DNA of 64,000 nucleotides from Pristiophorus japonicus (Eukaryota): NCBI RefSeq assembly GCF_044704955.1, contig NC_091983.1:46934001-46998000 (forward strand), read 5' to 3'. The notes beneath the pieces are model-generated. The model made no database searches, was not told where the DNA came from, and saw only the letters and a list, made by a program, of their open reading frames with translations. Positions 11,902 to 56,127 of this stretch are shown here, in pieces. A program made the translations under genes and the position numbers. How positions within the stretch are numbered: position 1 is the first letter of the stretch; every line of letters starts with the position of its first letter.

Positions 11902-12695
11902 GACACCAACATCTTGGTTGTTCATGCTTGCAAACATTGCACCACCATGCCTACGCCGCAAATATGCATCTCCAGAGAATACAACCATTAAACCAGCAAA
12001 GACATGCTGACCCAGGCCGACTTGAACAACCTACCACCAACCCGTTTCAAATTTTGAACAGCATTTTGTACCGTCGCTGAAGCCTTCAGTGATTTTGCCA
12101 CTGTCTTGCTGACCGATGGCGAAATTCTTTGGAAGATCTGTGACACATGGAACGGATTCCTGATAGAGGACCCCACGGTACAAGCTGAAGGATCAAACCT
12201 TCCTCACAAACAGTGGCCAAACATCAACCACTTCAGAACTGGTCATGGTAGATGCTGCCAACTTCTCCAGAGGTAGAAGATTAAAGCATCCCCATCAGAC
12301 AACTGTGGAGCTCCTAATCGGACCCGGGAGCACATTACTGCGCACTGCCCTCAGAGAAAATTCACAGGCAGCCTACAAGATATCTACGCTGTTATACTTT
12401 ACAACTTTGGCCTGGATATCTTATTGTGTTCCGAACACAGATGAGGCTGCACACAGGGAGATTAAAGTAACTGTGACCTCAGTCTTTAATAAGACACTCC
12501 AGAGTGAGGAACAGGCCTTAGGGGCTGGCTTATATACAGTGCTCCCAATGGATGCTGAGATTCCTTGGGACTTCAGGGGATTCGCTCCCTGGTGGCAGAA
12601 CATGGGAGTGCATGCTTTACACATACACAACATCACTCCCCCAACAAAGTCAAATTGAAAACTATTTACAAGGTGAGGCGGTCGGGAGCCTTTCT

Positions 12696-15600: not shown

Positions 15601-15760
15601 AGTCACTCAAACATCTTTTTACTCATGATGGATTGGCTAGCGCCAGTGTCCAGTTCCATGGCTACGGGTAAGCCATTCAATTTTACGTTTAGCATTATAG
15701 GTGGACATTTCGCCGAAAATGTGTGCACCCTATGTACTTCAGTATCTGCCTCCTCTCTCT
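12696..15760 (-). pseudogene. pol: Gypsy A pol fragments: protease, partial RT, integrase
   Basis: ELDTGAS (protease); VRICGDYK, KLDLTSAY and VFQDDILV (RT); LVSDNGPCF...PASNGQAERAVQTIK (integrase). Several frameshifts and a CR1 insertion. Confidence 0.92.
14099..14849 (-). mobile_element. CR1 LINE 3' fragment inserted in Gypsy A RT
   Basis: [19 protein letters not shown]...RVVNLWNSLP and an (ATAGAAAC)n tail. Removing it restores ESLLKSVPCMVVFQDD. Confidence 0.96.
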
Positions 15761-16639
15761 GAGGCTCGAAGTTGCTTTGATCCACCATGGACCGATCATC
15801 CTCTGCCACGTGGTGGTTAGCAGGTTTTGCACAGCTTGCAGCTTGTATGCAAGCTCGTTGGATGTGCCCCATTGTTCCACAGCTCTTGCAAACATACCCT
15901 TTGAAGCGGCATGAATAGGCTGAATGGAAGTATCCACAATGCCAACAAGTGTGAATTGCCTTACATTCATCCTTTGTTGCGGACTCTGAGTCATCTGGGT
16001 CACCTGAGGCCTGCTGGCAGTTGCAGACTCGTGGGTTCTGCCCTGTACATTTCTGCTCGCAAGCACAGTTCCAGTTAATTTATGAACATTGCTAGCACTT
16101 GTGTGCTGAGAGATTTGTTTGGTGTTATCACTGGTGGACATAAACACCTGTGCTATCGCAATGGTCTTACTGAGGGTCGGTGTCTCTACAATCAAAAGTT
16201 TTCGTAGGATGGTCTCGTGGCCAGTGCCCAGTACAAAAAAGTCTCTGAGTATTTGCTCCAGGTAGCTATCAAACTCACATTGTCCTGTAAGTCGCCTTAG
16301 CTCGGCGATGTAGCTCGCCACTTCCTGACCTTCAGATCGCTGGCACATGTCGAACCGATATCTCGCCATCAGCACGCTCTCCCTCGGGTTAAGATGCTTC
16401 CGATCCAGTATACACAGCTCCTCATATGACTTATCTGTGGGTTTCACTGGAGCCAGAAGATTCTTCATGAGGCTGTAGGTCGGTGCCCCACAAACTGTGA
16501 GGAGGACCGCTCTCCTTTTTGTAGCGTTTCCTTCTCCGTCCAGCTCATTGGCTACAAAGTACTGGTCTAGCCGTTCGACATAGGATTCCCAGTCCTCACA
16601 CTCCGAGAACTTCTCCAGGATGCCCACAGTTTGCTGCAT
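15695..16639 (-). pseudogene. gag: Gypsy A gag (frameshifted near the zinc knuckle)
   Basis: MQQTVGILEKFSECEDWESYVERLDQYFVANELDGE...ARYRFDMCQRSEGQEVASYIAELRRL. A parallel copy starts at 40176. Confidence 0.9.
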
Positions 16640-17294
16640 CTTTGTGTTTGATGCATATTCTTATCGGCAGTTATTGTGTTCCTAACGCAGATGAGGCTGC
16701 ACTCAGGGAGGTTAAAGTAACTGTGACCTCAGTCTTTAATAAGACACTCCAGAGTGAGGAACAGGCCTTGGGGGCCGGCTTATATACAATGCTCCCAAGG
16801 GATGCTGGGATCCCTTGGGACTTCAGGGGAAGAGCTCCCTGGTGGCGGAACATGGGAGTGCAGACTTTACAGATACACAACATATCTGACTTAGATATTG
16901 ACAAATGATTTGCTTGGCTGCTACCCATATGAAAGATGAAGAAGGGGAGGATTGCCTTCCACCCTTGGAAGGGCCATCCTCTCTTGTTGTAGCTTCTGTG
17001 CCAGTGCCTCCAACTCTTCAGGACTAAGGGAGCACTGTTGTCTACATTATCTCACTGCACAATTAGTCCAATTTTCTGCCTCTTCATATTTCACACTCCC
17101 CAGCCATGTGTGTTACTGGTTAAGCTCCCTGAACATATATTCCATGTACCATTGAGCTATTCTAATCATGGTGAAGGATTAACATATTCATTGCAACTAG
17201 CCCTTTGAGTTGCTGTCACAGGTAGCCGTAGGCCACAACCCCATTTTTGCTACTGATGCAAAATCGGGCGTATAGACTGCACGTCTAAAGAGGT

Positions 17295-19289: not shown

Positions 19290-20481
19290 ACTTCTGCAGT
19301 GGACGGAAGTCCTACCCTGCTGGAGATGACTCTGAGTAAGAACATTCAGGCTATGATCTTTAGCTGTCCCTAAAATTTTGAGGTGCTTCTGTATCTTAAC
19401 TACATGAAAATAGGTGAGGGAGCGATAGTCTTACCAAGCAATAAAAAGTATCTTTAAGTCCAATTTAATTAGTTATTGTTCTAAGTTTTTTTTTAGTACA
19501 ACCTAATAAGTCGAGTGACTTCTTTGTGAAACTCACAAATAACAATAATGTGGTTATAATTCAATTACAGCACTGTAATGTCTAATGTTGTCTGTTTTTC
19601 TGACCTTTAAACATCATGGGCAGAAGTTTTCATTAGGATGCACTGTTTGTTTCAGCACAATATGCTCGAAATCGGCCAAACCAGCGCAAAAGATTGAGGA
19701 ATTTCAAGCGCAAATTACGTCCAGCTTCTTTAAAGGCACCAAACAGTGGTGTTTTTAGACAGTTGTCAAGCTTATACTGGAATGGATTAGTTTTCCCCTT
19801 CCCTTCAGGTTTCAGTTGTGTTTGTGTGCCTTAATTGGATTGTAAACTTTCTGTCTGGAGGACTTGTGGAACAACGATGAGATCAAATATTTATCAGTGC
19901 TATTTACCAGAGATACCTGTCAAAGCCTGTTTTCATTTTGCTTTCTTATCACTTGCAGGGCAATCATTTCTTTTGATACAATTGAAAGACCACTGAAAAT
20001 ATTCTTCGATAAAGAGCTTAGCCAGTCTTATCCAAAGAAATTGATAAAAGAAAATCAATCCAGTTGTTCCCAAGTATAAGGAATCAATTATTTTGTTACT
20101 GGTTTGTTCCTGAATTGAAGTGGACAGTCTAGCACGCTTCCTTTGGAAGTGTCTAATGTTGTCCTTTTCTCTGACCTTTAAACATCAAGGTTGGATTTTC
20201 AGCTTTTGCGATTTCGGGCGGTAAGGACCACCTTGAAAAAGTTTGCGTCGTCGCCTGCAAATTTCACCAAAAGGTGAGGTTACATGATCGGGGTGGAAAA
20301 TCAGGCGTTTCACAAGGAGGTTTTTGTGTCCCGGCTGAAAATCATGGCATTAAAAAAGATTGCTATTTCACGCATGTGCAAACGCTTTTCAATTTTCCCG
20401 GCGCGGGCGGTCCTTTAGGATGCGCCGGTTTCCTGTGCACGTGCGCAGATGACCCGGCCCACTTCAGACACAGCGGCAGAG

Positions 20482-22469
20482 ATGGCGCAGCAAGTGGGCA
20501 GGCAGCATGCCAGACGATTCTCTGCAGAGCCTGCTGAGGCCTTAGATCAGGCCATTGAAAGGAGCTAGTCTGCACTTCATCTGGTTGGGGAAGGGAGGCC
20601 GTTGTCCAGCATATTTAAATGAATCAGGAGGAAGATAGCCTAGAAGGTGTCAGCGGCAGACACGGTGGCCAGAACTGGCACACAATTCTGCAAGAAGTTC
20701 AACGACCTCAAGGGTATTCACATTTATGTAGGCCTGCCATGGTTGAAGATCAATGTCTCACACAATGTTAAGTTTTTGATTGAGCTGTCCTTCCTCAATG
20801 TGTTGCAGACCATGGTGTGAGTTGCATAATACAGCACAAAGCTGGAGGCTCAATTTTCCAGCCAATCAGGATGCACCGACCCTCCTGTCCCCTAATCATT
20901 GTCAAGCCTCCTAGCACTGCACTCCCACTGTTGATATGCGTTTTTCAAACATCACCCTGAGACGCTATGCTACCTACTTCTCACCTCCTCCCACTCTTGA
21001 AAAACCTCAGTCACCAGCCACACAGATTGAACTGAAGACATTTGCACATTCACACAGTTGCAGCTGTAGAACTATGGAAGGCACATGTGGCACAACAGGA
21101 GGTGGACCCTCAATGAACCTTTCTTCTTGCTCTTATTGCAGGCCAAGGTCTCCCAAAACAAACGGGAGCAATGTTGTAAAGGAAGCGGACAGCCGGAGCT
21201 GCTGGAGCTCACTGACATTGAGCAGCGAGTGTCAGCCCTCAAGGGCACCCCAGTTCGCACAGTGGCTGGGGGTGATGCCGAGCCCCCTTCGGGTAGTGAG
21301 GGTATGTAAATGGAACTTGCGAATGATGTGACGTCCTCGACACTTAATATCAATTGGCCTGCCTCGCCCCTTTACATATACATGTCCAATGCCTCCTTCC
21401 TGCTATCGCCCTGCCCCCTCCCATGCTGCTAACCACACGTCTGTTGTTTTCTGCTTACAGATGACCAGCCAGAAGCGCTCCAGCTTTCCCGTGAGGCATC
21501 TACATCTGCCACGGGGGAGACGATGAGGGAGGGGATGAGAGTGTACTGCCTGAACATCACAGCCCACCAGTCGAACCGTCTGACAGCACAACATCTGGGG
21601 ACGAATGAGATTTCCCAGGGTTTGAGGACTCTGGGGCTCCTGGCCCCAGTGGTCTACAGCAATGCCCAGTGGGAGGGGAAGCTTGGAGGCCAGTTACCCG
21701 GATGGTGAGTCGGCCCAGTGGCCCTGCTCAAGAACAGGCAGACGTGGACCTGGAATTGGTGACAATATCCAGGGAGAAAACACAGATGCACCACGAGCTC
21801 ATGGGTGCATTGGTTAGGATTCCCCAGATCATCGACAATCTTGCTATGAGTGTTGCAGAGGCCGCCTCACGCATTGTCCCTCAGGACTCCAGCGAGGCCA
21901 TCCTTGCTCACTCACAGAGGCAGATAGCCTCCAGCAGCGAGAGTGGCATTCCAGAGTGTGTCGTGCATGCCATTGATCACGTCACAGCTGCGATCGAATC
22001 ACAGGCACAAGCTACGCTGCAGCTTCGTGATGTCATGTGATCAATGACTGGTACCATCCTCTCTGTGTTCCCCACTGTCCAACGGGGAAGTGACGGTGCC
22101 GAAGCAGGCCAGCAAGTTGTGGTGACACATCGTGCTCCGGATGCGGAGGCCCAGCCCTGTGTGAGTGTCATTGGTTCCCAGGAAATGGAAGGTGCTGTCT
22201 TTCCTCCGGATCACAGCATTCAGGCTCCCACCATTGACTCTCCCACCATGCATCTGACGTGGTCCACACCACAGCCATCAGAGATGGCTGCCGCCGATGC
22301 TGGGGCACGGCAGTCCACAGCCAGGCCTTCCAGGCCCAGAGCAGGTCCAGAACGGCCTCATAAGCCATCTGCACTGTCTGGCCCACCAACACAGCAGCCC
22401 TCAAGCAGACTTGCTGTAGGCACTGAGGCCTCATTGATGAGGAGCAACAGGCATGAGAGGGGGAAATGA
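20482..22469 (+). pseudogene. Harbinger Myb/SANT-like DNA-binding gene, 3 exons
   Basis: Exon 1 ARRFSAEPAEAL...KVSAADTVARTGTQFCKKFNDL (in-frame stops). Exon 2 at 21142-21301 (AG/GT) reads AKVSQNKREQ..GSGQPELLELTDIEQRV. Exon 3 starts at 21461. Confidence 0.85.
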
Positions 22470-22717
22470 AGGGAAGGGGGGAAATCTCTGAGCAAGTCCA
22501 ATTAGAAGCGGGACAACCTAGTGCAGATGCCTTGATGTATTCTGATTACGCATGTAAATAGTTGTTTGTCATTAATACATTTGTTGTTGAGTTACTTGCA
22601 GCAGAACGTTGTTTATTGTTTGCTTTTATTTTGATGGGTGGAACTGTTTGTTACTTCCTTGGATAAAAATGTCACTTTGACCCTTTGCCGTTGGTGTCGT
22701 GTGAATCATTCCAAAGT

Positions 22718-23881
22718 TCACTGTAGATGTGCCTTTATGGTCGCACGTATTAGCTGCACCCCACAACTTCCTCCATTCAAGCAAACTGGTCCATTATGAG
22801 CTGGCGACGTGCGGCTTTTGCTCCAGCAGCATCTCCACGCTGTCTTCCCCCATGGATGGGATGGCTGTCCAATCGCTGCCTCACCAGGCTCCTCTTCATC
22901 GTCCTCCTCCGCCTGAGGTGGGCCTGCAATCCCCACTGGCAATGCCTGGCCCCTCATTATGGCCAAGTTGTGTAGCATGCAGCACCCCACAATAAATTCG
23001 GAGACCAGTTGCGAGGAGTATTTGAGCACCCCAATTGTCTGTTCGATGATGTTGCAGGTGGCTGCATGGCTGTCATTGTAGCGATGCTCGGCTTCTGTGG
23101 TGGGGTTGCGGATGGGGGTCATGAGCCAGGTGGCTAGGACGTATCCTTTGTCCCCGAGCAGCCAGCCGCGCCATTCCCTTTGTCGCTGAAACATTTGTGA
23201 GTCACTGCTCTCACGCAAGATGAATGTATCATGTGCTCTCGCTGGATAGCGGGCATTCACTGCGAGGATGCGCTGAGTGTGGTCGCACACCAGCTGGACC
23301 TTTCGGGAGTGGTATCCCTTTCGGTTTCTGAATAGCTCAGCATTGTGGAATGGTGCTCGCCTGGTCACGTGTGTGCAGTCAATGGCTCCTTGAATCCTCG
23401 GTAAACTTGCAATTCTGCCAAACCCAAGTGCCCACTCATTCTGGCTGTCCCTGCTCATGGGGAACTTTATGAAGTCCATTCTGCAGGTGTACAGAACCTT
23501 TGTAATGTGGTGAATGCAGCGATGTGTAGAGTATTGAGAGATGCTGCATATGTCCCCTGCAGCTGCCTGGAAGGAGCCGGAGGCATAGAAGGCCAGCGCC
23601 ACAGTCACCTTCACTTTGATGGGCAGCGGAGTCGTGTTGGGGCTGGTAGGCTGCAGGTCTGCCTGTAGAAGATGGCATATCTCTGTCAGCACTTCCTTTC
23701 GGAAGTGCAGCCTTCTCACATACTGCCCCTCAGAGAGCTGGTGGTATGAGTGTTGGTGCCTGTAAACCCATGGGGGGTAAGCCTTCCTCCCCAAACGTAT
23801 TTGGCCTCTCTTCATTCTTGGGCCGACATGGCCAAGACCTCTTCTTCTTGCTTGAAGCCGCCTGCCAATAGCAACCAGCAT
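22718..23881 (-). pseudogene. Harbinger (HARBI1-like) DDE transposase
   Basis: ALAFYASGSFQ, GAIDCTHV, NRKGYHS, HDTFIL, LLGDKGY, IIEQTIGVLK, CCMLHNLAI. Lacks the QHFRSLDHSGGCLQ segment present in copy 2, and the C-terminus is frameshifted. Confidence 0.93.
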
Positions 23882-24995
23882 GATTTACTGGCAAACTTGT
23901 AATGCCGCATTAAATTCTCTCACTAACTATATAAGGACAATGTAATGGCTGATAAAACTGCTGCTTTCAAGTCGGAGCTTCACGCAGTGTGCTGTGCATA
24001 AACGTTGCGGGCAATGTAGGATCCTCCTCCCTCCATTTAAATACGCCGCCAATACCGCCTGCTGTACCTTGGGAACGCCTGATTTTTCAGACGTTTCCTG
24101 GGGCAGGCATTAAATGAGACGTTAGGGCCAAGTTTTACATCCGGGGCGCTAGCGGAGCGTTGCACGACAATTGACTACATGATCTCAGTGAAACTGGAGC
24201 ACGGGGCGGTAATTGTTTGCGCGCTGCAAACCATGAGCAGAATTTGTCCTCCGGGGCACTAACTGAGATGCAAGTGAGCCAAGAGTCCAGCCCATGCATA
24301 TATGGAGCTGTCTATCTCCCATGACATCACACACACAAAGTGAAGATATAATTCAGACCCCATTTTTATTCTGTATCTATTTTTACAAAATCATTTGAGT
24401 TAATATTATATATAGTTAAATAGCAAAACTTACAGCAATTTGGGAAGCAGAGAAATGGAGTTGGTTGAAGTATTGGACTTTCAGTGCAGTTTAGGCTGAG
24501 GAACTGGTGGTTGCAAAATTGAGGTGCTAGAGTGCCATCTCTAGCAGGAGGGTTTAAGAGGTGGAGAGATGGAGTGCTGTCATTTATCCTTACATACTCC
24601 GAAGGCAGTGACAAGAGATAACAGTGGAGGTCAATGCCAGGAGAGTAGCCCCAAGGACCTGAATGCAGTGCAGGAAGACGTTTAATAATCTCACACGCAT
24701 GGTCAAGGTCGGTGAATGCATCTTCAAATGCCATATCCTACCAACTGCACCACTAGATTCATCCACTGCGCAATTCACTGCACCCAAAACACTCACCTAC
24801 CAACAATCTCTAACAATCAGGACTCGTACCTAACATTCAAATGGTTTACCTCACCCTCACACACTTCGCACGTTGCAAGCCTCGCACCCACATCTCAAAG
24901 CTTACACACACTGGCAGCTATTCAACTATGACAGCCACAGCATTCAAACATATTGCACGACACTCACTGACACATTTCATTCTTTCTGGCAGGAG

Positions 24996-39930: not shown

Positions 39931-42900
39931 TGATATCTATGTAAACTTGTATTTACTCTGTACAGCCACCAGAGGGCTCATCCCTCGATGTCCCAAGGGA
40001 TCCCATAATCCCTTGGGAGCACAGGTATTTAAGGAGGCTTCACTGATTGGAGAGGCACTCTGGAGACCTGCAATAAAAGACTAAGGTCACACTTTACTTT
40101 GAGCTCACAGTGTTCAGACTGACTCTTTCTCCATACACAACAACTGGCGATGAGATACAGATAGCGAACCCAAAGATGCAGAGAACAGTGGGCATCCTGG
40201 AGAAATTCTCGGAGGGAGATGATTGCGAAACTTTTGTGGAGCGACTTGACCAATACTTCGTGGCCAACGAGCTAGATGGGGAAGAGAGTGCTGCCAAATG
40301 AAGGACGATCCTCCTCACTGTCTGTAGGGCATCAACATATGGCCTCGTGAAGAATCTGCTCACTCCAGCGAAACCCACGGAGAAATCATGCGACGATTTA
40401 TGCACACCAGTCCGAGAGAATTTGAACCCAAAGGAAAGCATTCTGATGGCGAGGTACCAGTTCTACACCTACAAAAGGTCTGAAGGCCAGGAAGTGCCGA
40501 GTTATGTCGCTGAGCTAAGATGCCTTGCAGGATATTACGAATTTGAAGGACATTTGGAGCACATGCTCAGAGACTTTTTTGTACTTGGCATTGGCCATGA
40601 AAGCATACTTCACAAACTTTTGACTGTAGAGACCCCAACATTGAGTAATAGCGATAGCCCAAGTGTTCATTGCCACCAGTGACAATACGAAGCAAATCTC
40701 TCAGCACACAAGTGCTGCTACAAGTACTGTGAACAAAGTGATGTTGTTTTTCGAATCGTAATGTACAGGGCAGGTCACAAATAGCTGCAGCTATACATCC
40801 GCAGATGTCTCAGAATCCACCATCAAGGGTGATGAATGCAAGGCCATTAACATCCTGTTGGCACTGCGGGGGTGATCATCGTTTTCATTCATGCCGATTC
40901 AAAGAGTACGTTTGCAAGGGCTGTGGAACAAGGGGACACCTCCAACAAGTGTGCAGGCGAGCTGCAAGGCCTGTTAAACCTGCAAACCATCATGTTGCAG
41001 AGGAGGACGGATCCACGGAGGATCATGACGAACCAGAGCCTCAAATCGAGGAGGCAGAGGTACATGGGGTGCACACATTCACCACAAATTGTCCCCTGAT
41101 AATGCTGAATATTGAACTAAATGGTCTTCCAGGATGACATCTTGGTTACAGGTTGGGACACAGTCGAGCATCTGAAGAATCTGGAGGAGGTTCTTAGTCG
41201 ACTCAACCACGTGGGGCTCAGGTTAAAACGCTCAAAGTGCGTTTTCCTGGTGCCTGAAGTGGAGTTCCTGGGAAGGAGGATTGTGGCGGACGGCATCAGG
41301 CCCAGCAACACAAAGACGGAGGCAATCGCGAATGCACCGAGGCCACAGAACGTGACGGAATTGTGGTCGTTTCTGGGACTCCTGAACTACTTTGGCAACT
41401 TCTTACCGGGTTTCAGCACACTGTTAGAACCACGACATGTCTTACTATGAAAAGGGGATGAATGGATTTGGGGCAAAAGCCAAAAAAATATCTTTGTAAA
41501 AGTGAGAAAATTGTTATGCTCAAACAATTTGCTTGTGTTGTATGATCCATGTAAGTGTTTGGTGCTAGCATGTGATGCGTCATCATAGGGCATGTCTATT
41601 GCAACAAGCTAATGATTTTGGGAAACTGCAACCGGTTGCTTATGCATTCAGGAGTCTGTCTAAGGCTGAGAGAGCCTACAGCATGATTGAGAAAGAAGCA
41701 TTAGCGTGTGTCTATGGGGTAAGAAAATGCATCAATACCTGTTTGGGCTAAAATTCAAATGGGAAACTGACCATAAGCCACTTATATCCCTGTTCACCAA
41801 GAGTAAAGGGATAAATACCAATGCATCGGCCCACATCCAGAGATGGGCGCTCACATTGTCCACATACAACTACGCCATTCACCACAGGTCAGGCACAGAA
41901 AACTGCGCCGATGCTCTTAGTAGGCTGCCATTGCCCACTACGGGGATGGAAATGGTGCAGCCCGCAGATCTAGCCATGGTTATGGAAGCATTTGAGAGTG
42001 AGCAATCACCCATCACTGCCCGGCAGATCAAAACCTGGACAAGCCAGGACCCTTTATTGGGGCCAAGTTTCTGCCTGAGTTGCTCCTGTTTTTTTGGAGC
42101 AACTGGTTTAGAATGGAGTATCTTAGAAATTACAATTCTCGGCATTTAGTTTGCTCCAGTTCTAGTCAGTTAGAACAGTTTCAGTTTGGAACAGATATTT
42201 TTTTTTCAAAAGGGGGGCGTGTCTGGCCACTTATGCCCATTTTGAAAGTTTAGGCAGTGAAAACTTACTCCAAACTAACTTAGAATGGAGTAAGTGTAGA
42301 TTTTTGTACGCTCAGAAAAACCTTGCCTACACTTAAAAAATCAGGCGTAGGTTCCAAATCAGGCATAGGAATGGGTGGGGGGAGGAGGGTTTAAAGGGAA
42401 GTTTACAAACATTAAACACTTCAGTTTTACAAATAAAGAGTCATCATCAATAATAAATGATAAATACATCAATAAATCAACCAATAAATCAATCAAAAAA
42501 AATGAATAAAAAATAAAGAAAATTTAAAAAATCAATAAAAAAAAAAAATTCTACTCACCGACTGCAGCACCAGGAGCCCTCCATCAGCGTGCTGGTACGG
42601 GCCCCCCCCCAGTGTGTGTCTCTCTCTCTGTCTGTCTGTGTGTGTCTCTCTCTCTGTCTGTCAGTGTCTNNNNNNNNNNNNNNNNNNNNNNNNNNNNNNN
42701 NNNNNNNNNNNNNNNNNNNNNNNNNNNNNNNNNNNNNNNNNNNNNNNNNNNNNNNNNNNNNNNNNNNNNNNNNNNNNNNNNNNNNNNNNNNNNNNNNNNN
42801 NNNNNNNNNNNNNNNNNNNNNNNNNNNNNNNNNNNNNNNNNNNNNNNNNNNNNNNNNNNNNNNNNNNNNNNNNNNNNNNNNNNNNNNNNNNNNNNNNNNN

Positions 42901-45673
42901 NNNNNNNNNNNNNNNNNNNNNNNNNNNNNNNNNNNNNNNNNNNNNNNNNNNNNNNNNNNNNNNNNNNNNNNNNNNNNNNNNNNNNNNNNNNNNNNNNNNN
43001 NNNNNNNNNNNNNNNNNNNNNNNNNNNNNNNNNNNNNNNNNNNNNNNNNNNNNNNNNNNNNNNNNNNNNNNNNNNNNNNNNNNNNNNNNNNNNNNNNNNN
43101 NNNNNNNNNNNNNNNNNNNNNNNNNNNNNNNNNNNNNNNAGAGGGGAGAGAGGGAGGGGGAGAGGACGGGGAGAGAGGGGGAGAGGGGAGGGAGGGAGGG
43201 GGAGAGGAGAGGGAGGGAGGGCGAGCGAGAGGAGAGGGGGAGAGGGGAGGGAGGGGGAGAGGAGAGGGAGGGGGGGAGGGAGAGGAGAGTGAGTGGGAGA
43301 GGAGAGGGAGGGGGAGAGGAGAGGGAAGAGGAGAGGGAGGGAGGAGAGGAGGGGGGAGGGGGAGAGGAGAGGGAGAGGGGGGAGAGGAAAGGGAGGGAGG
43401 GGGAGAGGAGAGGGAGGGGGAGAGGGGAGGGAGGGAGGGAGAGGAGAGAAGAGGGAGGGGGAGAGGAGAGGGAGGAGGCTGAACGGGCCCGGCTGACGTG
43501 AAGAAGCCAGGCCCAAGACTTCAGGTGGGGCCCGTCCCCAGCAAGATGCCGGGCGGGCGGGCCCCACTGAAGGAGTTAAAGGCAGGTGGCCGGGGGGAGC
43601 CGGAGCTGGGGGGGGGTAGGCGGGGGGGGGCAGGGGGTGGGGTCGTCGGAGCGGGAGCTGTGGGGGGGGGGTCGGGGGGGGGGGGAGCGGTCCGGGGGGG
43701 GGAGTGGAGAGGGGGTGGGGGTTTGAGAGAGCCAGCTGAACAGGGGAGGAAGCTGGAGCCAGAGCAGGAGCTGGACCAGGGAGGTGCAGCCTGATCCTCG
43801 CAGCCCCAGTGAGGCCATTCGGCCAGGGCTAGGGGCTGCATGCTTGGGGCCCCTCCCACACAGTTTCGGGCGCCTGGCGCTACTGCACATGCGCGCCCAC
43901 TGTAGCGTGCCTGTGCAGAGGTCCCAGCACTGATTTCAGTGCCGGGACCTGGCTTCGCTCCCCACAGCTCGTACTGCGCTGCGCCGAGCTCCAAAGGACC
44001 TGCAGGGAGCCGGAGAATCTGCAGGTATTTTTTAGGCGTACTTTCAGGCGCGAAAAACGGGCGTCCAGGTCGGGGCTACGCCGTTCTAGGCGCGGCCCGA
44101 AACTTGGGCCCATTATCTCTAGTCAAAAGCTGTGTGCTTCACGGGAGCTGGTTCAGTGTCCCAATGGAAATGCAGGAAGAGATAAAGCCGTTCCAGGGCT
44201 CAAAGATGAAACGTCTATACAGGCAGACTGCCTTCTGTGGGGCAATCGTGTAGTGGTCTCCAAGAAGGGCAGAGACACCTTCATCAATGACCTCCACAGT
44301 ACCCACCCAGGCATCGTAATGATGAAAGTGATAGCCAGATCCCACGTGTGGTGGTCCACTATCGATGAGGACTTAAGAGTCCTGCATTCACAGATTTAAT
44401 ACATGTTCGCAGTTAAGCACTGTACCCAGGGAGGCGACGCTAAGTTTATGGTCTTGGCCCTCCAAACCGTGGTCTAGGGTACACATCGACTATGTAGGCC
44501 TGTTCTTGGGTTAAATGTTCCTTGTGGTTGTAGACGCGTACGCCAAGTGAATTGAATGTGAGATAATGTCGGCTAACACGTCCGCTGCCACTACGGACCT
44601 GCGGACCATATTTGCCACACACGGCTACCCGATGTCCTGGTGAGCGACAATGGGCCATGTTTTACCAGGGCTGAGTTCAAAGAATTCATGACCCGTAACG
44701 GGATCAAACATGTCACATCTGCCCCGTTTAAACCAGCGTCCAATGGTCAGGCAGAGAGAGCAGTGCAAACCATCAAGCAAGGCTTGAAGAGGGTAACTGA
44801 AGGCTCACTGCAAACATGCCTATTCCGAGTCCTGCTTAGCTACCGCACAAGACCCCACTCACTCACTGGGATCCCACCTGCTGAATTGCTCATGAAAAGA
44901 GCACTTAAGACAAGGCTCTCGTTAGTTCAACCTGATCTACATGAACAGGTAGAGAGCAGGTGGGTCAACAAAGTGCATACCATGATAGCGCAAATGTGTC
45001 ACGCGAGATTGAAATCAATGATCCTGTATTTGTATTAAATTATGGACAAAGTCCCAAGTGGCTTCCCGGCACTGTTGCGGCCAAAGAGGGGAGCAGGGTG
45101 TTTCGGGTCAAACTTTCAAATGGACTCAGTCACCGGAAATCAAACTCAGATTCGTGGACTACCCTGAGCAACCCACCTTGGACCCTACCTTTTTTGATCC
45201 CCCAACATACACACCAGTGGCAACCGGCACCACGGTTGACCACGAAGCAGAACCCATCATCCACAGCAGCCCAGCAGGGCCCAACACACCAGGCAGCCCA
45301 GCAAGGCCAGATGCACAGCAGCCCAGCAGCCCAGCAAGGGCCCAACAAATGATTCCACAACTCCAGCTTTCACACCGAGATGATCAACCAGGGCAAGAAG
45401 GGCCCCAGATCGACTCACATTGTAAATAGTTACACTATTGACTTTGCGGGTGGGGGGCGAGTGTTGTTATATATGTAAACTTGTATTTACTCTGTACAGC
45501 CACCAGAGGGCTCATCCCCTGGAGTCCCAAGGGATCCCATAATCCCTTGGGAGCACAGGTATTTAAGGAGGCATCACAGGTTGGAGAGGCACTCTGGAGA
45601 CCTGCAATAAAAGACTGTCACACTTTCCTTTGAGCTCACAGTGTTCAGTCTGACTCGTTCTCCATACACTACA
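39931..45673 (+). mobile_element. Gypsy LTR retrotransposon B, internally deleted
   Basis: LTRs at 39931-40142 and 45465-45673, TSD ACACC, PBS TGGCGATGAG at 40145 (tRNA-Ser(GCU)-like), G-rich PPT at ~45446-45462. Carries gag with CCHC knuckles, RT VFQDDILV, RNase H CDASS and ETDHKPL, integrase SDNGPCF. Protease and RT N-terminus are deleted at ~41125. Confidence 0.97.
42059..44111. mobile_element. G-rich non-autonomous TIR element inserted in Gypsy B pol
   Basis: TIR GGGGCCAAGTTTC / GAAACTTGGGCCC, TSD ATT. Removal restores the frame QDPLLSLVKS. Contains an N gap at 42670-43139. Confidence 0.95.
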
Positions 45674-46340: not shown

Positions 46341-47249
46341 GCAATAAAAACTTTCCACATCAAGTTTAAAGCGTCCCAGTTGATCACCTGAGCACATTTA
46401 AATTTCAGGGTGGAGTTATACTGCAGGTGGCAGGAGCTGAAAGTTGCGTGAGATTGCCTGTTGGGAGAGGTCTCGCATAGCTTTGCTTTAGTGTGCCCAG
46501 GTGTCAGGTCACTCGCTGTGCTGCAACAGTGCCTGTTAGTGTGTATACAAACCCCCTCTGCATCAGCATCAAAGGAGCATTATGACTGCGGCCTTTGGTG
46601 CAAGGAGTTGCAGATGTATCAATGCTGTGGCTTCAGGGAGTACCAGCTCCTTTGCTCATTTTGAAGCTTTCATTATTTGCTGGGCCAGAGTAGAAAAACT
46701 CTCAATAAATCAATTTTGCAGTCAGCAATACAGTTTATTTCACAGGCAAACAAAATAAAGTCAGTGTAGCAGTTAAATACTCATGCCATTTTTCTGCTAT
46801 AATTTTTGGACAATCAAATCTGGACAAAATAAACCAGAATTTAAAATCTGAACCTTTGAAAGTATCAGTAATAAGCACCGCAAAACTCTAACCTTGATAA
46901 AATAACTACTTGATTTTGAAGTTCAAGGCTCCTCTCATTACTAAAAAATGTAATTCTAAACAAGCAAGTTAATTTTTAAAATTATCAGCCTCGTACACCT
47001 CGCTTAACATCCGCCCCAGGAAATGTCTGAAAAAAACCGGCATTCCCAGGGTGCAACAGGCGGTATTGGCAACGTATTTAAATGGAGGGAGGAGGATCAT
47101 ACATCACAGGTCACATTGACTGCAACGTTTGCGCACAACATCCTGCATGAAGCTCCGACTTGCAAACGACAGTTTTATTTGCCATTACAGTGTCCTTACA
47201 AGGTCAGTGAGAGAATGTAATGGGGGTATTACTCGTTTGCCAGTGTATC

Positions 47250-48393
47250 ATGCTGGTTGCTATTGGCAGGCGGCTTCAAGCTAGAAGAAGGGCTGCTGGC
47301 CATGCCGGGCTATGGATGAGGAGAGGACGAAGACATCTGGGGAGGAGGCCTTACCACTGATGAGTTTACAGGCACTAACGCTCATACCTCCAGCTCTCTG
47401 AGGAGCAGTGTGTGAGAAGGCTACACTTCTGAAAGGAAGTGCTGCCAGAGATATGCCATCTACTACAGACAGACCTACAGTCTTACAGCGGCAACTGGAC
47501 TGCTCTGCTCGTCGCAGTGAAGGTCACTCTGACGCTGGCCTTCTATGCCTCCCGCTCCTTCCAGGCAGCAGCAGGGGACATATGCAGCATCTCTCAATAC
47601 GCTACACATCACTGCATTTGCCAAGTCACAAAAGCTCTGTACACCAGCAGAACGGACTTCATAAAATTCCCAATGAGCAGGGACATCCAGAATGGATGGG
47701 CACTTGGGTTTGGAGGAATTGCGAGCTTCCCGAGGGTTCAAGGAACCATTGACTGCACACATGTGGCCTTGCGAACACCATTCCACAATGCTGAGCTATT
47801 CAGAAACCAAAAGGGATACCACTCCCTAAATGTCCAGCAGGTCAGCGACCATCCTTGCAGTGAATGCCCGTTATCCAGGGAGTGCACATGATGCATTCAT
47901 CTTGCGTGCGAGCAGTGTCTCACGAATGTTTCAGTGACAAAGGGAAGGACAGGGCTGGCTGATCGGGAACAAAGGATACAGCCTAGCCACCTGGTTCATG
48001 ATCCCACCCACCCCTCCGCAATCCCATCACAGAAGCCGAGCAGCGTTACAATGAGAGCCATGCAGCCACCCGCAACATCATCGAACAGACAATTGGGGTG
48101 CTCAAGCAGCACTTCCGAAGCCTGGACCACTCTGGAGGCTGTCTTCAATACTCCCCTCAACAGGTCTCTGAATTCATTGTGGGGTGCTGCATGCTGCACA
48201 ACTTGGCCATCATGAGGGGCCAGGCATTGCCAGTGGGGATTGCAGGCCCACTTCAGGAGGAGAGGACGAGAACGATGATGAAGAGGAGCCTGGCGAGGCC
48301 CCGATTGCATAGCCACCCCATCCACCAGGGAGGCAGCGTCCAGACACTACCAAAGCATGAGCTTGCATCGCCAGCTCATAATAGTTTGGTTGA
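47250..48393 (+). pseudogene. Harbinger transposase, copy 2 (stops and frameshifts)
   Basis: MLVAIGRRLQARRR start, LAFYASRSFQ, GTIDCTHV, RNQKGYHSLNVQ, LKQHFRSLDHSGGCLQYS, CCMLHNLAI. Confidence 0.92.
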
Positions 48394-49403
48394 ATGGAGG
48401 AAGCTGAGGGCTACCTCTAATACTGGCCATGCTATGTGCCACCATATAAGCACATCCAAGCTGGGCTTTTGAATGATACAAATGACACCAACAGCAAAAG
48501 GTCAAAGTGACATTTTTATCAAAAATAGTTACAAACGATGCACCCCCAACAAAACCAAACAAGACAATAAACCATCATAACCAAACTATACAATAAACAG
48601 TGTTCTGCCGTAAGTTACTTTACAAGTGCATTATTAAAAACAACTATTTACAGGCGTTCTCATAAAATATCAAGGCATCTGCAGAAGGCTGTCCCACCCC
48701 TTAATGGGACTTAGCTAGAGATTTCCCTTCCTTTCTCTTCTTCTACCTCCTATGCCTGCTGCTCCTCCTCAATGAGGTCTCAGTGCCTGCAGCAAGACTG
48801 CATGAAGGCTGCTGTGTTAGGGGGCAGACAGTGCAGACGGCATATGAGGATGCCCTGGACCAGCTCTGGGCCTGGAAGTCCCCGCTGTGGACTGCTACAC
48901 CTCATCAGCGGCAAACGCAGTCACTAGTGGCTCGGGTGTGTATTGTGCAGGGTGCATGGTTGGAGAGTCAGTGATGAGAGCCGGAATGCTGTCATCCCGA
49001 GGAAGGACAGCAGCTTCCATTTCCTGAGAGCCACTGAAACTCCGACAAGAGCGGGCTTCAACATCCGGAGCACGCTGTGTGACCACAACTTGCTGGCCTG
49101 CTTTGGCACGATCCCTTCCCCGTTGGACAGTGGGGAAGACAGATAGACTGGCACCAGTCATCGACCGCAGCACATCACCAAGCTGCAGCATTACTTGAGT
49201 CTGCGATTCGGTGGATGCTGCAACATGATCAAGGGCACGTGCCATACACTCTGGAGGCCACTTGCCTCTGTGAGTGGATAAAGATGGCCTCGCTGGAGTC
49301 CTGAGTTGTATTGACAAGTCGTGAAGTTGCCTCCACAACAGTCGCAGAAAGTTTGTTGATGTTCCCTGGGATCCGTCCCAATGCAGCCATGAAATTACAA
49401 CAA

Positions 49404-50128
49404 GGGGGTCCTTGTGCATGAATCCCAAAACGTTAGTTTGCAGGTGCAGCAGGTAATCAGGAAGACGAATGGAATGTTGGCATTCATTGCGAGGGGGATG
49501 GAGTACAAAAGCAGGGAGTTCCTACTGCAACTGTGCAGGGTATTGGTGAGGCCGCACCTGGAGTACTGCGTGCAGTTTTGGTCACCTTACTTAAGGAAGG
49601 ATATACTAGCTTTGGAGGAGGTACAGAGATGATTCACTAGGCTGATTCCGGAGATGAGGGGGTTACCTTATGATGATAGATTGAGTAGACTGGGTCTTTA
49701 CTCGTTGGAGTTCAGAAGGATGAGGGGAGATCTTATAGAAACATTTAAAATAATAAAAGGGATAGACAAGATAGAGGCGGAGAGGTTGTTTCCACTGGTC
49801 AGGGAGACTAGAACTAGGGGGCACAGCCTCAAAATACGGGGGAGCCAATTTAAAACCGAGTTGAGAAGGAATTTCTTCTCCCAGAGGGTTGTGGATCTGT
49901 GGAATTCTCTGCCCAAGGAAGCAGTTGAGGCTAGCTCATTGAATGTATTCAAATCACAGATAGATAGATTTTTAACCAATAAGGGATTTAAGGGTTATGG
50001 GGAGTGGGCGGGTAAGTGGAGCTGAGTCCATGGCCAGATCAGCCATGATCTTGTTGAATGGCGGAGCAGGCTCGAGGGGCTAGATGGCCTACTCCTGTTC
50101 CTAATTCTTATGTTCTTATGTTCTTATG
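49404..50128 (+). mobile_element. CR1 LINE 3' fragment
   Basis: [20 protein letters not shown] and a (TTCTTATG)n tail. Confidence 0.95.
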
Positions 50129-50735
50129 AACTCACAGTGCATGTCCGTGTTTTCCCTGGCCATTTCCACCCAAGTCCAGTTCCATGCCTGCCTGTTGTTG
50201 AGCAGTCCTACTTTGCCGACTCACCCTCTGGAGAGCTGGCCTCCGAGATTCCCCTCTCACTGCGCATTGCTGTCGGCGACTGGGGCCAGGAGCCAGGAAA
50301 ATTGTGCTCATCCCCCAGATGTGCTTTGTCGCAACAAGCCAACTGGTGGGCTCTTTGGGTCAGGCATTGCAGTCTCCTCGCACGCCTCATCATCTACATG
50401 ATTTCTCTTTCACAAATCCATGCTGATTCTGCCCAATCCTATCGATGGCTCCCTGCACGCCTGTCGTGATTGTGGCTGCTCTTCTGCAAACAGAAAACAA
50501 CAGATGTGTGGTTAGCAGCAGGGAAGGGTGATAGCAGGAAGGTGGCATTACACATGTACATGTGAAGGTCCCTTGCCACTTCATAAGACATCTCAATGAA
50601 GTCACATCAGTCGTGCAATTTATTTATATACTCTCACTACCTGAAGGGGGCTCAGCATCGCCCTCGGCAACTGTCCGAGCTGGTGGTCCAATGAGGGCAG
50701 GCACCTGTTCCTCCAGTTAGAAATATAGAAACATA

Positions 50736-53700
50736 GGGCTAGAACCTCCACTTTTTTTGCATGCTTAACACCCACTTTACCGCTGACATGACATATAACG
50801 CCAATATATCGCCCATTTTGGCACAAAATGGAAATTGACAGGCTTTTTTAGGAGACTTATTGCCGAGTGTTATTTTCCCAATGGGCTTAACGCCGGGAAA
50901 AAATATTACTGCCCGCCCACTTTTTTGGGGCGGAATCAGCAGAATGGGCAAAATCAACGCCCATAATATCGTCCAGTGTTACTTTCCGCAGGGAATTAAT
51001 GCCGAGATTCAATATGAACGCCCGCCCATTGTTTTTTGTTGTAAAGAGTATATTTACTAGCGGCCATGGAGATCGCCCATCATTAATTTCACCACCTCGC
51101 ACACATATCGCCCACAATATCGTTCGCTCAAAAAAACGCCCATAAAAAGTGGAACTAACCGGAACGAATGCCAGCGGTGTGGCTGGCATTTGTTAAATCC
51201 CGCTCTTACGTGAGGAGCTGATATCGGAAAGATTTGCCTGAAAGAGCGCTGATATGAGTGACAATGCTGACACACTGCTGTGTATGTGCAGCTCAAACAT
51301 CAATGGTGCCCATAACCTTGGTGCCAGTTAAAGTTTACGTTGATTGATGTTAAGTTGTATTTAACCCTTTCATGTTAAGGAATCACCAGTGTGCAGCTAC
51401 CTGAGACAATACGCAACAAGGTTATGTTAAATAACAAAAATTTTATACCAACATTGGTCTGAAATCATAAGTATCACAGCCAATAACACCCAACCCCTGC
51501 CCACACCCCACTTTTTCCACCATTGACATCAATCACATGTTCAACATGTCCACCAACACAGAATACAAAGGCAAAGCAGGAGCGTGGTCCCCAGCCCCCA
51601 TACATTGCAACAAATTGCATACACCCAGATGGAGATATAACACAGCCATCACCTGCGGACATGCACCTCACTTTCCTTCCCCCCCTCTCCTACTTCTCCC
51701 CAGCTCTACCCCTTCCCCTCCTCACTCCACGGCGCCTGGCCGAGGAGCTACTCAGGCAGTGCTTCATTGGTGGGGGATGAAGGCAGAGGTGGTGGTTGCA
51801 CGGGTTCGGGAGCGGGGGGGTGCCGAGAGGGCAACATTCTCTGATGCAGAAGCAGGATCTTGGTCCTTGCTCTCATCTGTCGTTCGCAATGGTGGTGCGG
51901 GACCTAGGGGTGGAGTGCCATGCTCGGGGACCACTGGGAGGCCTGTGGCAGCAGTGTTCCTGGCTATCGCATCCAGGGCCTCCACCATGCATGGAATATA
52001 CTCGGTCATGGTGGCCAGGTGTCGGGATATGTCCCCCAATGCTTTGATGAGCTGATCACCAATGTCTACAGTCCTCCTGGACAACTGTACCATTTCTCCG
52101 TTGTCATGCCGCGCTCATGGAATAGACCTGCCGCGTCCACGAAGCCTCTGCGGGGTCGGCGTCGTCCAGGGGACAAATGGGGTGCCCTGTGGCGAGGTGC
52201 TTGTGGTCAGTACCTTCAGAGTGGAGGCAGGAATGACCGGAGAACCAGTAGATGGCCTTGGGGTGGAATGGCTTCTGGAGCATGGCGATGCAGGTTCTTC
52301 GAAGTCCGCACTCTCATCCATCGAGAACAGACCCAGCGGGTTGACGAGCGACAATCGGAGCTCCTCAGCACCAGATGTAGAGGATCGTCCACCGACTCCT
52401 GCCACGCACCCCCAATTCTGGCCTCTGTGGCCTTGCCTGGGGCCGTGCTGATGGCTGAGCTGCAAAACACAAATGAGGTTATTAGAGGAGAAGTGGGCGC
52501 TAGGGTGACAGGATGAGTCCAGCGCTACACACAGCATATGCACGACAAAAGCACGAGCGCTCTCAAAATCATCGCAGACATTGTGCATTGCAATGATTTT
52601 CATTAGGCCAGCATTATTTCTCTGACACTTTTAGAAATTATCTATCACATATGATTGTTTGGATATGAGCGGGTGTGGCATCTATTGACTTCACATCACG
52701 CAATGGTGTAAGCTTTACACACGCGGCATCACTTCAGGGTCTGCAGATGCGTCCGTGGCTGTCCGGGGGTGCTTCCCCACGAGTGCGAGCACCCGCTCCT
52801 CCATCGCAGTGATGTCGCTGCTGGGGACTGGTGGCCCCCCACCCGTTCGCCTCTGCACGGAGCTCATCGTCAATAGCTTCTTCTGTAAAAGGTGACAGGA
52901 CGACATAGCAAGGATATCACGCAATGATCTCATGCCAGGTACTGTCACAGAGACTGATACAACACATAAACGACAGATGTAATCATGATTATTATGATAA
53001 TTATCATTCTTTACCTAAAGATGTACACCGTGACCGCAGGCTTTGAGTAAAACATTCCCGGTAAAAGTGCAAGACCTCACATATGCTGATGGTTACTCAT
53101 GACTGTTACAAATCAAATTATATAAGTACATGTAAATCAATGTAATACTTACTCTTGTGGATCCCACAAGGTTGTTCCATCGTTTGCGGCATTGGTTGCC
53201 CTCACGAACCTCGTTGGTCACCGACGAGACCACCTCTGCTATCTCGGTCCATATCCTCTGGTAGGCCTTTGGGGTGGGTCCCATGGCCTCCCTGTGTTGG
53301 ATTACCCCAGCGTAACTCGACCCCCTGCAGGAGGGAGGCATTTGCGTCGGCCGAGAACCTCCTGGTACTTTTGCGGCATCCAATGTGCTCCTCTCTCACC
53401 TCACTACTCTCTCCAGAGTCAGTCTCCACAGCGTACTGTGATGCCTCCTCCTCTCCCTCCATTATAGGGCAAATTTGGTCAAATATGTGGCTGGTAACAG
53501 CTAATTTTTGTTTGCCTACTTGCTGTGAAGCTCTAAAGTCTCCTTCCTTCCTTCCAAAGCAGCCACACCACACCCAGCCATGCCTTCAGTCCCTCTGAGC
53601 TCCCTCTCCCTCTCTCTGTCAACTCTTCTGCACATGTCATAGTGACCCTTGACCTCCTGAATCGTGGGAATCGAGCGTTGCCCTGCCATTGCTTAGGATG

Positions 53701-53903
53701 GCCACACTTTACGGCAGAAGGTCAAAAGAATTTAACGCCACCGCGCATTTGATATCGCTGGCCAGAGCGCACATTTTCAAAAATGTAAACTACATTTTTT
53801 GAGAATGGGCGAGAAGCCAGCGATCTGAAAACCCTTTTTTACCACCCACACCGGAAATAATGCTCATTTTTGGGCGATAAGCAAAAAGTGGAGGTTCTAG
53901 CCC
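50736..53903. mobile_element. Harbinger derivative retaining the Myb gene but lacking the transposase
   Basis: TIR GGGCTAGAACCTCCACTTTTT at both ends, TSD ATA. Three-exon Myb gene on the minus strand. Only LLREELISERFA* (51203-51241) resembles transposase. Confidence 0.9.
51690..53462 (-). pseudogene. Myb/SANT gene of the nested element (exons 53462-53153, 52882-52723, 52459-51690)
   Basis: RRFSADANASLLQGVELRW...AYQRIWTEIAEVVSSVTNEVREGNQCRKRWNNL, then GTAAGT. Exon 2 KKLLTMSSVQRRTGGGPP. Basic C-terminus RRGRGRAGEK*. A few frameshifts. Confidence 0.85.
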
Positions 53904-54837
53904 ATAGAAACAGTTCTGTTAAGTCCAGGATCTGAGGCGGACCCCCGCCTGTCCGGCACTGCTCATGCCCATTGTGTGACAGCTTCGCCTGCAATGAGAA
54001 AAATAGGAAGGGTTCAGAAAGGGTGCACCTCCTGTTGTGCCACATATGCCTACAATATTTCAATAGCTGAGACTGTGTGGATGTGCAAATGTCTTCACTT
54101 CAATCTGTGTGAATATTATATGAGCTTTGTGAACGATTGATAGGAGGGGAGAAGGACGTATGAAACCCATATCAGCAGTAGGAGTGTATTGCGAGGAAGG
54201 TTCTCAATGATTAGGGAACAAGAGGGTATGTGCATCTTTAATGAAGAGGCAATGGCTGGAGAAGTCAGCCTTCAGCTTTCTGATGCATTGTGATAACTGC
54301 ACCACAGGCTGCGAGATTTTGTGAATGGGCAGATACATGAAAGACTTCACATAGTGTCTGACATTCATGTTGGAAGGATAGCAGGCATACATAAATATGA
54401 ATGGTACCCACCCTGATGAATCTGGTAAGGTCATTGAACTTTTTGCCTCATTGGGTGCCAGTTCTCGCAACCGTGTCTGCCGCAGACACCTCCTGAGCAA
54501 TTTCAAACTATACCCATTTGAAAATTGTTGGGAGTGATCTCCCTCCACCAACCAGATGGAGTGATGTCCACCTCCTCTCCACTGCATGAACTAAGGCCTC
54601 AGCAGCCTCCGTTGAGAAATGCCTGGCACGCTGCCTAGCGTCCTGGGGCTCCATCTCTGCAGAAGTACCAGAAATTGGATGGATCATCTGCACATGCGCG
54701 GAGAAAGCTGCCATGCCTGGAAATAACATCTGCGCCCGGAAAAATAAAAATATGACTGCACATGCACAAAATGGCCGCCTCTTTAACTGCAGTGATTTTC
54801 GACTTGGGCGCACAAAGCCCATTGTGTAATGTCTGAT

Positions 54838-56127
54838 TTAATTGCTTGCTGTACCTGTATGTTAACTTTCAGTGATTTGTGTACCAGGACACCCAGGTCC
54901 CTCTGAACATCAACATTTTCCAATCTCTCACCATTTAAAAAAAACTCTGCTTTTCTATTTGTCATACCAAAATGGATAACTTCACATTTCTCCACATTAT
55001 ATTCCATTTGCCATGTTCTTGTCCATTCACTTAGCTTGTCTATATCCCCTTGAATTCTCTTTGCGTCCTCCTCACAACTTACATTCCCACCTAGCTTTGT
55101 ATCATCAGCAAACTTGGATATATTACATTTGCTCCCCTCATCCAAATCATTGATATAGATTGTGAATAGCTGGGGCACAAGTACTGATCCTTGCGACACC
55201 CCACTAGTTACAGCCTGCCAACCCGAAAAATACCCGTTTATATCTACTCTCTGTTTTCTGTCCAGTAACCAATCCTCAATCCATGCTAATATACTACCCC
55301 CAATCCCATAAGACCTAATTTTATTTAATAAACTCTTGTGTGGCACCTTATCGAATGTCTTCTGAAAATCCAAATACACCACATCCACTGGTTCCCCCTT
55401 ATCTATTCTGCTGGTTACAACCTCAAAAAATTCTCAACAGATTTGTCCAACATGATTTCCCTTTCATAAATCCATGCTGACTCTGCTCAATCCTATTATT
55501 ATTTTCTAAGTGCCTGTTACCACTTCCTTAATGAGACATTCTACCATTTTCCATACTACTGAAGTCAGGCTAATTGGTCTGTAGTTCCCTGTTTTCTCTT
55601 TTCCCTCCTTTCTTAAATAGCAGGGTTAAATTTGCTACTTTCCAATCCGCCGGAACCTTTCTAGAATCTATGAAATTTTGGAAGATGACAGTCAATGCAT
55701 CCACTATCTCCATAGCCACCTCTTGCAAAAGCCGAGGAGGTAGGCCATTCTGTCCAGGGAATTTACCGGCTTTTAGTCCCATTAATTTCTCCAGTACTCA
55801 TTTTTTTACTAATACTAATTTAATTCAGTTCCTCATTCTCGCTAGACCCTTGGTTCACCATTATTTCCAGGAGGTTTTTGCATCTTCTTCCATGAAGACA
55901 GATACAAAGTATTTGTTTAATTTCTGTGCCATTTCTCTATTCCACATTATAATTTGTCCTGTCTCAGCCTGTAAGGGACCCACATTTACTTTCGCAAATC
56001 TTTTCCTTTTTACATACCTATAAATGCTTTAACCGTCTGTTTTTATGTCTCTTGCTAGTTTACTCTCATATTCTATTTTCCTTTTCTTAATCAAATTCTT
56101 GGTGATCCTTTGCTGAATTCTAAAATC
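54838..56127 (-). mobile_element. CR1 RT fragment
   Basis: DVVYLDFQKTFDKVPH...SGVSQGSVL...KFADDTKLGG. Confidence 0.95.

Follow-up and report, generated by a model that had tools for sequence, protein, structure and literature searches.

The Harbinger element at positions 50736-53903 of the analysed window (64,000 nucleotides of Pristiophorus japonicus; NCBI RefSeq assembly GCF_044704955.1, contig NC_091983.1, positions 46,934,001 to 46,998,000 of the forward strand) is a dead copy of a Myb-only family, here called J, which, with a probability that we put at about 0.65, formed one half of a split transposon and was complemented by a transposase-only family, Q. Both the multi-copy Myb-only family J and its transposase-only counterpart Q with matching ends are present in this genome.

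Structure of the element and spread of family J

Direct reading of the sequence gave a TIR-bounded unit of 3168 bp with exact 21-bp terminal inverted repeats (TIRs) at 50736-50756 and 53883-53903, and with ATA on both flanks (identical letters at 50733-50735 and 53904-53906) as a 3-bp target site duplication (TSD). Together with a three-exon Myb/SANT gene with GT-AG splice sites and the tail of a Harbinger transposase, these features make the element a member of PIF/Harbinger, and the description of the unit in the first-pass annotation was confirmed in all of these parts. The features of the element and its host are as follows.

47013..54839, no strand: host element, decayed copy 2 of the distant Harbinger family A (self-alignment to copy 1 at 20298-24104)
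50733..50735, no strand: left TSD (ATA), same letters at 53904-53906
50736..50756, plus strand: left TIR, 21 bp, ACCT variant, with 2962 exact genome matches
50757..51201, plus strand: left subterminal region with repeated CGCCCA-type motifs (motif counts)
51202..51202, plus strand: deletion junction common to the whole family J (alignment to parent P; junction matches)
51203..51241, plus strand: transposase C-terminal remnant LLREELISERFA*, continuous with the full frame in family P
51242..51667, no strand: 3' untranslated region between the convergent genes (alignment to parent majority)
51668..52459, minus strand: Myb gene exon 3, low-complexity region and basic tail (GT/AG borders)
52723..52882, minus strand: Myb gene exon 2 (GT/AG borders)
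53153..53462, minus strand: Myb gene exon 1 with Myb/SANT domain PF13873 (Pfam match, GT/AG borders)
53463..53882, minus strand: Myb 5' region and right subterminal region, the outer part of which evolves in concert with Q
53883..53903, minus strand: right TIR, 21 bp, exact inverted repeat of the left TIR
53904..53906, no strand: right TSD (ATA)

The deletion at the junction took away about 1350 bp (parent positions 484-1835), comprising the 5' region of the transposase gene and all but its last 12 codons; a junction had been expected within 51150-51260, and it is real, with its position now corrected to about 51202. The domain PF13873 in exon 1 scored 29.4 bits against a cut-off of 21.7 (window frame 53096-53380) and was above the cut-off in two further J copies as well. 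The CGCCCA-type subterminal motifs are likely Myb binding sites. The ACCT variant of the TIR is common to families J, D, M and Q, whereas P, V and U carry TTTT or CTTT. As had been remarked before, the Myb gene of the window copy is frameshifted, and six such lesions were seen: exon 1 has lost 2 bases at 53279, and exon 3 has five indels of 1 base each.

According to an empty-site alignment, the element is inserted in 26 bp of additional sequence in copy 2 of family A, at a site that by its frame reads as exon 2 of the Myb gene of that copy. The window holds two decayed family A copies (20298-24104 and 47013-54839), about 68-78% alike and with convergent transposase and Myb genes, the second of which is interrupted by a LINE piece (49404-50124) as well as by the element. 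The transposase of copy 1 ends in AARRQLIMDQFA* at 22815 on the minus strand. The parallel drawn earlier between this end and the tail LLREELISERFA* stands insofar as both are present, but copy 1 is only a distant relative, and it was rejected as parent or source, since its protein is 45-50% identical to the majority transposases of P and Q and its ends are different. Elsewhere in the window, 12529-16852 and 39959-45567 are two decayed regions with gag- and integrase-like frames which, from motifs of this kind, we take to be LTR-retrotransposon-like.

The target site in the window, and also those at loci L069 and L203, is a repeat resembling the tails of LINE copies in the window (e.g. at 14102). 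Targeting of this repeat as a rule was discarded, as the flanks of J copies vary and fit a looser palindromic preference, approximately purine-rich, GAC, three duplicated bases with a central A or T, GTC. Among 78 two-ended copies, window included, 31 TSDs were identical, 22 had one mismatch and 25 had two or three, when only about 3 of the latter would be expected from decay; one flank of the mismatched copies may carry bases of the donor site.

In the 5.9 Gb of genome searched, a junction query of 201 bp returned 3938 candidates, of which the best 40 were scored and, the window itself aside, aligned near end to end at 94-95%. A junction pattern matched 2351 times with at most one mismatch, and a control not at all. 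The first-pass annotation had asked whether the deletion spread as a family, and with the junction at thousands of loci with different flanks it clearly did. The J sample consisted of the 39 best other matches and, from one contig, the first 40 pattern loci that were distinct; of these 40, 24 extend as far as Myb exon 1, at least 4 have a 1.7-kb form that lacks Myb, and the others are truncated or interrupted. Twenty-six aligned copies are 93-95% identical to the J majority sequence, whose Myb frame, the consensus frame that had been proposed as a check, is open over 419 amino acids; the sole indel common to many copies in this coding region is one of 3 bases. All 54 copies with enough sequence fell into one clade (SH-aLRT 100) with clear subfamilies. 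An intact Myb gene was found in 0 of the 26 J copies having all three exons, and the family is thus a fossil. A further deletion form, L205, has Myb exon 1 alone between J-type ends. Eight sequencing runs were listed as matches, none of them an RNA run, and no listed piece of the run contigs covering the junction region (X5, X7) dates the junction or places it in another species.

Parent lineage, transposase-only family Q and shared ends

The majority sequence of family P (4568 bp) has an open full-length transposase frame facing the same Myb gene as that of J, and the undeleted transposase tail has 1734 genome matches, a count that takes in P and D. The first catalytic D is kept in none of 32 P copies, 31 of which read glutamine (Q), and one additional P-type copy with an ACCT end likewise has Q at this place; none of 60 P and D copies retains the catalytic E. 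In the same columns, which we take to be catalytic from the DDE motifs of Harbinger, 51 of 62 database homologues have D and 40 have E. A single D-to-A change lowers the activity of Ping about 150-fold (PMC2836001), and the P transposase is likely to be catalytically dead. P was dismissed as an autonomous parent because both catalytic acids, the first D and the E, are lost.

Family V has lost the E (E to Q) and kept the first D, and it is represented by 80 exact matches to a 37-letter marker. A two-gene type, U, is also present in the genome, and only in the U majority are an intact DDE transposase and a Myb gene found in one unit, as expected for an autonomous element, in contrast to J, P and Q. 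In the transposase tree, from which five of 30 loci were omitted because they were rearranged or short, Q is the sister group of the V/P lineage and both lie within U (SH-aLRT 95.7). From trees rooted on U we infer the order of steps as E to Q (V), then also D to Q (P), then deletion (D or J), with the Myb gene kept throughout. Family D is a second deletion form, in which parent positions 679-1519 (840 bp) are removed and the Myb gene is kept. A transposase-side element with J-type downstream alleles was also considered, with 133 matches; the 20 examined were D family in 15 cases, P in 2 and incomplete in 3, and the candidate was given up. Private divergence is, roughly, 3.4% for U, 3.6% for V, 2.8% for P, 2.6% for D, 3.3% for J and 3.1% for Q.

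Several side observations concern this lineage. A tandem duplication of about 110 bp in the left end (parent positions 134-262 and 243-371) sets V, P, J and Q apart from the majority of U copies; with it, the subterminal motif count goes up from 7 to 9-14. Locus L264, of U type, has retained the transposase but, of the Myb gene, exon 1 alone. The genome contains at least two further abundant Harbinger families whose TIRs are related, one of them seen as a nested element at L194; one marker variant has tyrosine (Y) in place of the first catalytic D, and additional dead-enzyme Harbinger families may exist in the genome.

Among 30 loci picked by the ACCT left end, 10 belong to family Q, which is about 2.9 kb long and 74-80% like P. 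Its majority transposase frame is open over 403 codons, and among 14 copies 12 keep the first catalytic D, 12 the second and 14 the E. Of the Myb gene just about 100 C-terminal codons are left, without the Myb domain; at L192 and L211, for example, the Myb deletion fuses the start-codon region in frame to the C-terminal tail, giving a 122-codon frame. The Q frame matches 62 HARBI1-like (PF13359) database proteins with a top identity of 63%, the best being from sharks and rays, and no solved structure matching it was found. Two Q markers have 2783 and 2703 exact genome matches, the first count taking in some M copies. When 30 loci were picked by the Q transposase tail, 27 had the Myb deletion and 3 were uninformative, so that the Q transposase was joined to a Myb gene at 0 of 30 loci, and 0 of the 100 listed junction-side matches reach Myb exon 3. 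A re-united element of Q transposase and Myb was set aside on this count of 30 loci and 100 listed matches, though a rare one may exist, and a full element with J/Q-type ends was found at none of the sampled loci. A third family, M (1.7 kb; 10 copies aligned), has a J-like left part and a Q-like right part and thus carries both deletions; its members are J x Q recombinants with neither gene that spread as copies (at least 4 of 40 junction loci).

In the interior, J and Q differ by about 20%. There, over the 3' region and the tail of Myb, J has 34 derived alleles in common with P and none with Q; for the 3' untranslated region at 51242-51667 the counts are 17 and 0. The ends behave in the opposite way. 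At the left end, 16 derived alleles are shared by J and Q, three of them (the TIR itself) by construction because this TIR had served to select the 14 Q copies, and 0 by J and P; at the right end, where the Q sample was mostly chosen irrespective of the TIR, the counts are 7 and 1. Right ends of Q with the old TIR have J-type alleles at 9% (n=12) and otherwise carry P-type alleles, whereas among Q right ends with the new TIR the J-type share is 59% (n=16; p 9e-6). Left ends are mosaic: some of their alleles appear earliest in Q, others in D/J. Most P copies are without the ACCT TIR, and no copy of U or V has it. Between copies, left ends of U differ from those of J and Q by 25-27%, those of J from those of Q by 12%, and those within J or within Q by 10-11%; U carries the same subterminal motif as J and Q. 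J and Q were active together and their ends recombined repeatedly, although such exchange indicates co-activity and not by itself dependence.

Selection on the retained genes

In all frames, private changes evolved neutrally (omega 0.94-1.05, with 0.98 for the J Myb gene) and served as a neutral control. The transposase core of Q, by its substitution pattern, is clearly under purifying selection, with an omega of 0.29-0.36 on the Q stem and 9 nonsynonymous and 11 synonymous (9N/11S) linked variants; over the whole Q frame omega is higher (0.56-0.74), because the N-terminus changed fast. About half of the Q linked variants equal the allele of P, and these may be ancestral states. The Myb remnant of Q is neutral also in shared changes (19N/4S; linked 7N/0S).

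For the J Myb gene, shared variants amounted to 18N/18S (omega 0.31, p 6e-4) with a loose filter and to 18N/13S (omega 0.44, p 0.02) with a linkage filter. The dN/dS below 1 that had been suggested as a test is thus moderately borne out (0.31, 0.44), but under the linkage filter with all CpG sites taken out the count of 16N/8S is not significant (p 0.17). An initial count of 0N/7S for residues 34-141 was not upheld at that strength under the linkage filter, strict filtering inside the Pfam domain leaves 1N/1S, and variants within the Myb gene of P look neutral (16N/6S). Along the branch that leads from the V/P ancestor to J, 3 of 70 codons changed in the Myb domain versus 44 of 238 in the C-terminal part (p 0.002). 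The within-domain omega on this branch is 0.3-0.4 and not significant (3N/3S), and Myb domain 0-fold sites compared with pooled noncoding sequence gave p 0.05. The introns adjoining the domain also changed little (4/235 and 11/260), so the low change may be regional. The Myb frame and its splice sites were preserved, without a stop, across 86 substitutions on the branch to J. When the majority sequences of P and U were compared, 21 non-triplet indels were counted in about 2100 noncoding bases and 1 in 2460 coding bases, which falls within the final codons of Myb. Of the 21 noncoding indels, seven or eight also separate P from V, whose majority was built from few copies, so that three 1-base coding differences there may be noise. 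Selection on the J Myb gene is, at the level of these alignments, moderately supported, frame preservation being the better sign of it.

The dead transposase of P has on the branch to P an omega of 0.36-0.38 (49N/38S, p about 1e-5) and no stop or frameshift, and the same method applied to the C-terminal part of Myb gave about 1.1-1.2. Its 0-fold rate of 0.049 is lower than both its own 4-fold rate (0.12) and the rate of its 5' region (0.11) but no lower than that of pooled noncoding sequence (0.038), and therefore part of the low omega could be due to regional differences in rate or to recombination. Apparently the dead transposase was kept under selection in P, possibly in a non-cutting structural role; D and J show that it could later be dispensed with.

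Shared changes are richer in transversions (31 transitions/92 transversions) than private ones (1501/2260; p 0.001). Source lineages diverged by 4-15% though the ages of the families barely differ. Such long branches and transversion-rich shared changes suggest mutagenic transposition or time in a faster-evolving host.

A proposed split transposon, its alternatives and known systems

In Harbinger transposition, the Myb protein binds the ends and brings the transposase into the nucleus (PMC9179366, PMC13668399). In the split transposon that we favour, P and then D and J would supply the Myb protein and Q the cutting enzyme; the J Myb protein would bind the common subterminal repeats and bring the Q transposase to the ends of both families. 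Ends would be exchanged by gap repair or template switching between co-active copies and be kept alike by repair from each other's copies. DNA transposons are reported to evolve neutrally within genomes (PMC7070016); selection might still arise if few source copies were active at once and a source with a working gene of its own did better. The earlier suggestion that a Myb-only partner could supply or titrate the DNA-binding subunit is supported in its first half by Q with its matching ends, and for titration no evidence was found.

As the main alternative, J and Q could be ordinary deletion derivatives moved by the full two-gene U, with the J Myb gene as a passenger and the like ends as products of gap repair among co-active copies. 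A U with intact D/D/E and Myb, of similar age and with the same subterminal motif, does exist, and given that cross-mobilisation works between the proteins of Ping and Pong, which are 62-77% identical (PMC2836001), the U proteins could have moved J and Q as well. The usual neutrality of DNA transposons within genomes (PMC7070016), the lack of significance of the J Myb signal under the strictest filter and the spread of M with neither gene (at least 4 of 40 junction loci) would fit as well. We consider this account less likely in view of the left ends of U, which are 25-27% away from those of J and Q when these are 12% apart, the restriction of the ACCT TIR to copies other than U and V, the J Myb frame and splice sites that outlast 86 substitutions without a stop, and the purifying selection on the Q transposase core. 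Evolution of the families in another host or vector, with repeated horizontal transfer and purifying selection arising from transfers that needed both halves together, is a good deal less probable still. Source branches of 0.04-0.15, far above the age differences between families, and shared changes richer in transversions would be in agreement with it, as would the purifying selection that horizontal transfer imposes (PMC7070016). All intermediates (U, V, P, D, J, Q and M) are found in a single genome, however, and the 62 homologues of Q reach just 63%, the best being from sharks and rays, though an unsampled donor may exist.

Vertebrate genes derived from Harbinger Myb genes exist; NAIF1, MSANTD1-4 and HARBI1 are domesticated Harbinger genes, and the Myb/SANT domain of NAIF1 and MSANTD1-4 presumably belongs to the same Pfam family as that of J. 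With these precedents and the great abundance of J in mind, one might see in J a repressor titrating the transposase or the ends, or an element en route to domestication as a NAIF1/MSANTD-like gene, a route also proposed in the first-pass annotation. We give this hardly any credence. The domesticated genes are conserved and single-copy, whereas J, with thousands of TIR-bounded copies and no intact frame under selection, decays neutrally (private omega 0.98; 0 of 26 three-exon copies intact), and the window copy has six frameshifts. The joint amplification of J and Q with co-changing ends fits help better than repression.

Canonical PIF/Harbinger elements have short G-rich TIRs, 3-bp duplications, a DDE transposase and a Myb/SANT protein, both of which are needed (PMC9179366), and proteins from related elements can be mixed, as for Ping/Pong (PMC2836001). 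J and Q are alike in short TIRs, 3-bp duplications and the DDE and Myb/SANT components, but their genes lie on separate similar-ended families and their TSDs are varied N-W-N, not only TWA. The one-gene arrangement is a known kind, since it has been published for sea kraits and Caenorhabditis inopinata. In the latter, Harbinger-1M_cIno comprises MADF/Myb-only and DDE-only elements of one family with shared ends, for which supply in trans is proposed but left undemonstrated (PMC13668399); J and Q are likewise Myb-only and transposase-only with like ends. That system has 19 MADF-only and 5 DDE-only loci with one intact DDE gene and is still active, whereas J and Q have thousands of copies each and, compared with what the accessible text describes, add an interior divergence of about 20%, ends that changed together, recombinants, a stage with a dead transposase, and tests of selection. 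Harbinger-Snek of sea kraits has solo-ORF variants, 2263 transposase-only and 452 DNA-binding-only in L. colubrina (PMC8437027), and resembles J and Q as a set of multi-copy vertebrate Harbinger variants with one of two genes. There, however, 269 intact full elements occur alongside the variants, which are regarded as probable non-autonomous deletions (PMC8437027), whereas J and Q are diverged sister lineages and no full element with J/Q ends was met in the samples. A non-exhaustive literature search, with sources seen in part, returned no closer published system than these two. Compared with what was seen of these sources, new features here are a stepwise series that passes through a dead enzyme apparently maintained by selection, ends that co-evolved in both directions across about 20% divergence, and a recombinant with neither gene.

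Tentatively, we go further and propose an obligate two-partner vertebrate DNA transposon, the partners having diverged by about 20% with their ends matched by recombination, in which the dead transposase (omega about 0.36) would have been selected as a non-cutting subunit before its loss and a cheater with neither gene arose. If true, this would represent selection within a genome on trans-acting genes of a DNA transposon, which is unexpected under current theory. It directs attention to what a non-cutting Harbinger transposase might do, a matter that bears on the domesticated Harbinger proteins, and J and Q give concrete testable pairs for the complementation put forward as a proposal for C. 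inopinata. Every intermediate of the proposed Harbinger split is still readable in this genome, and a split Harbinger with matched halves, kept frames and a cheater would be a fossil record of labour division among selfish elements.
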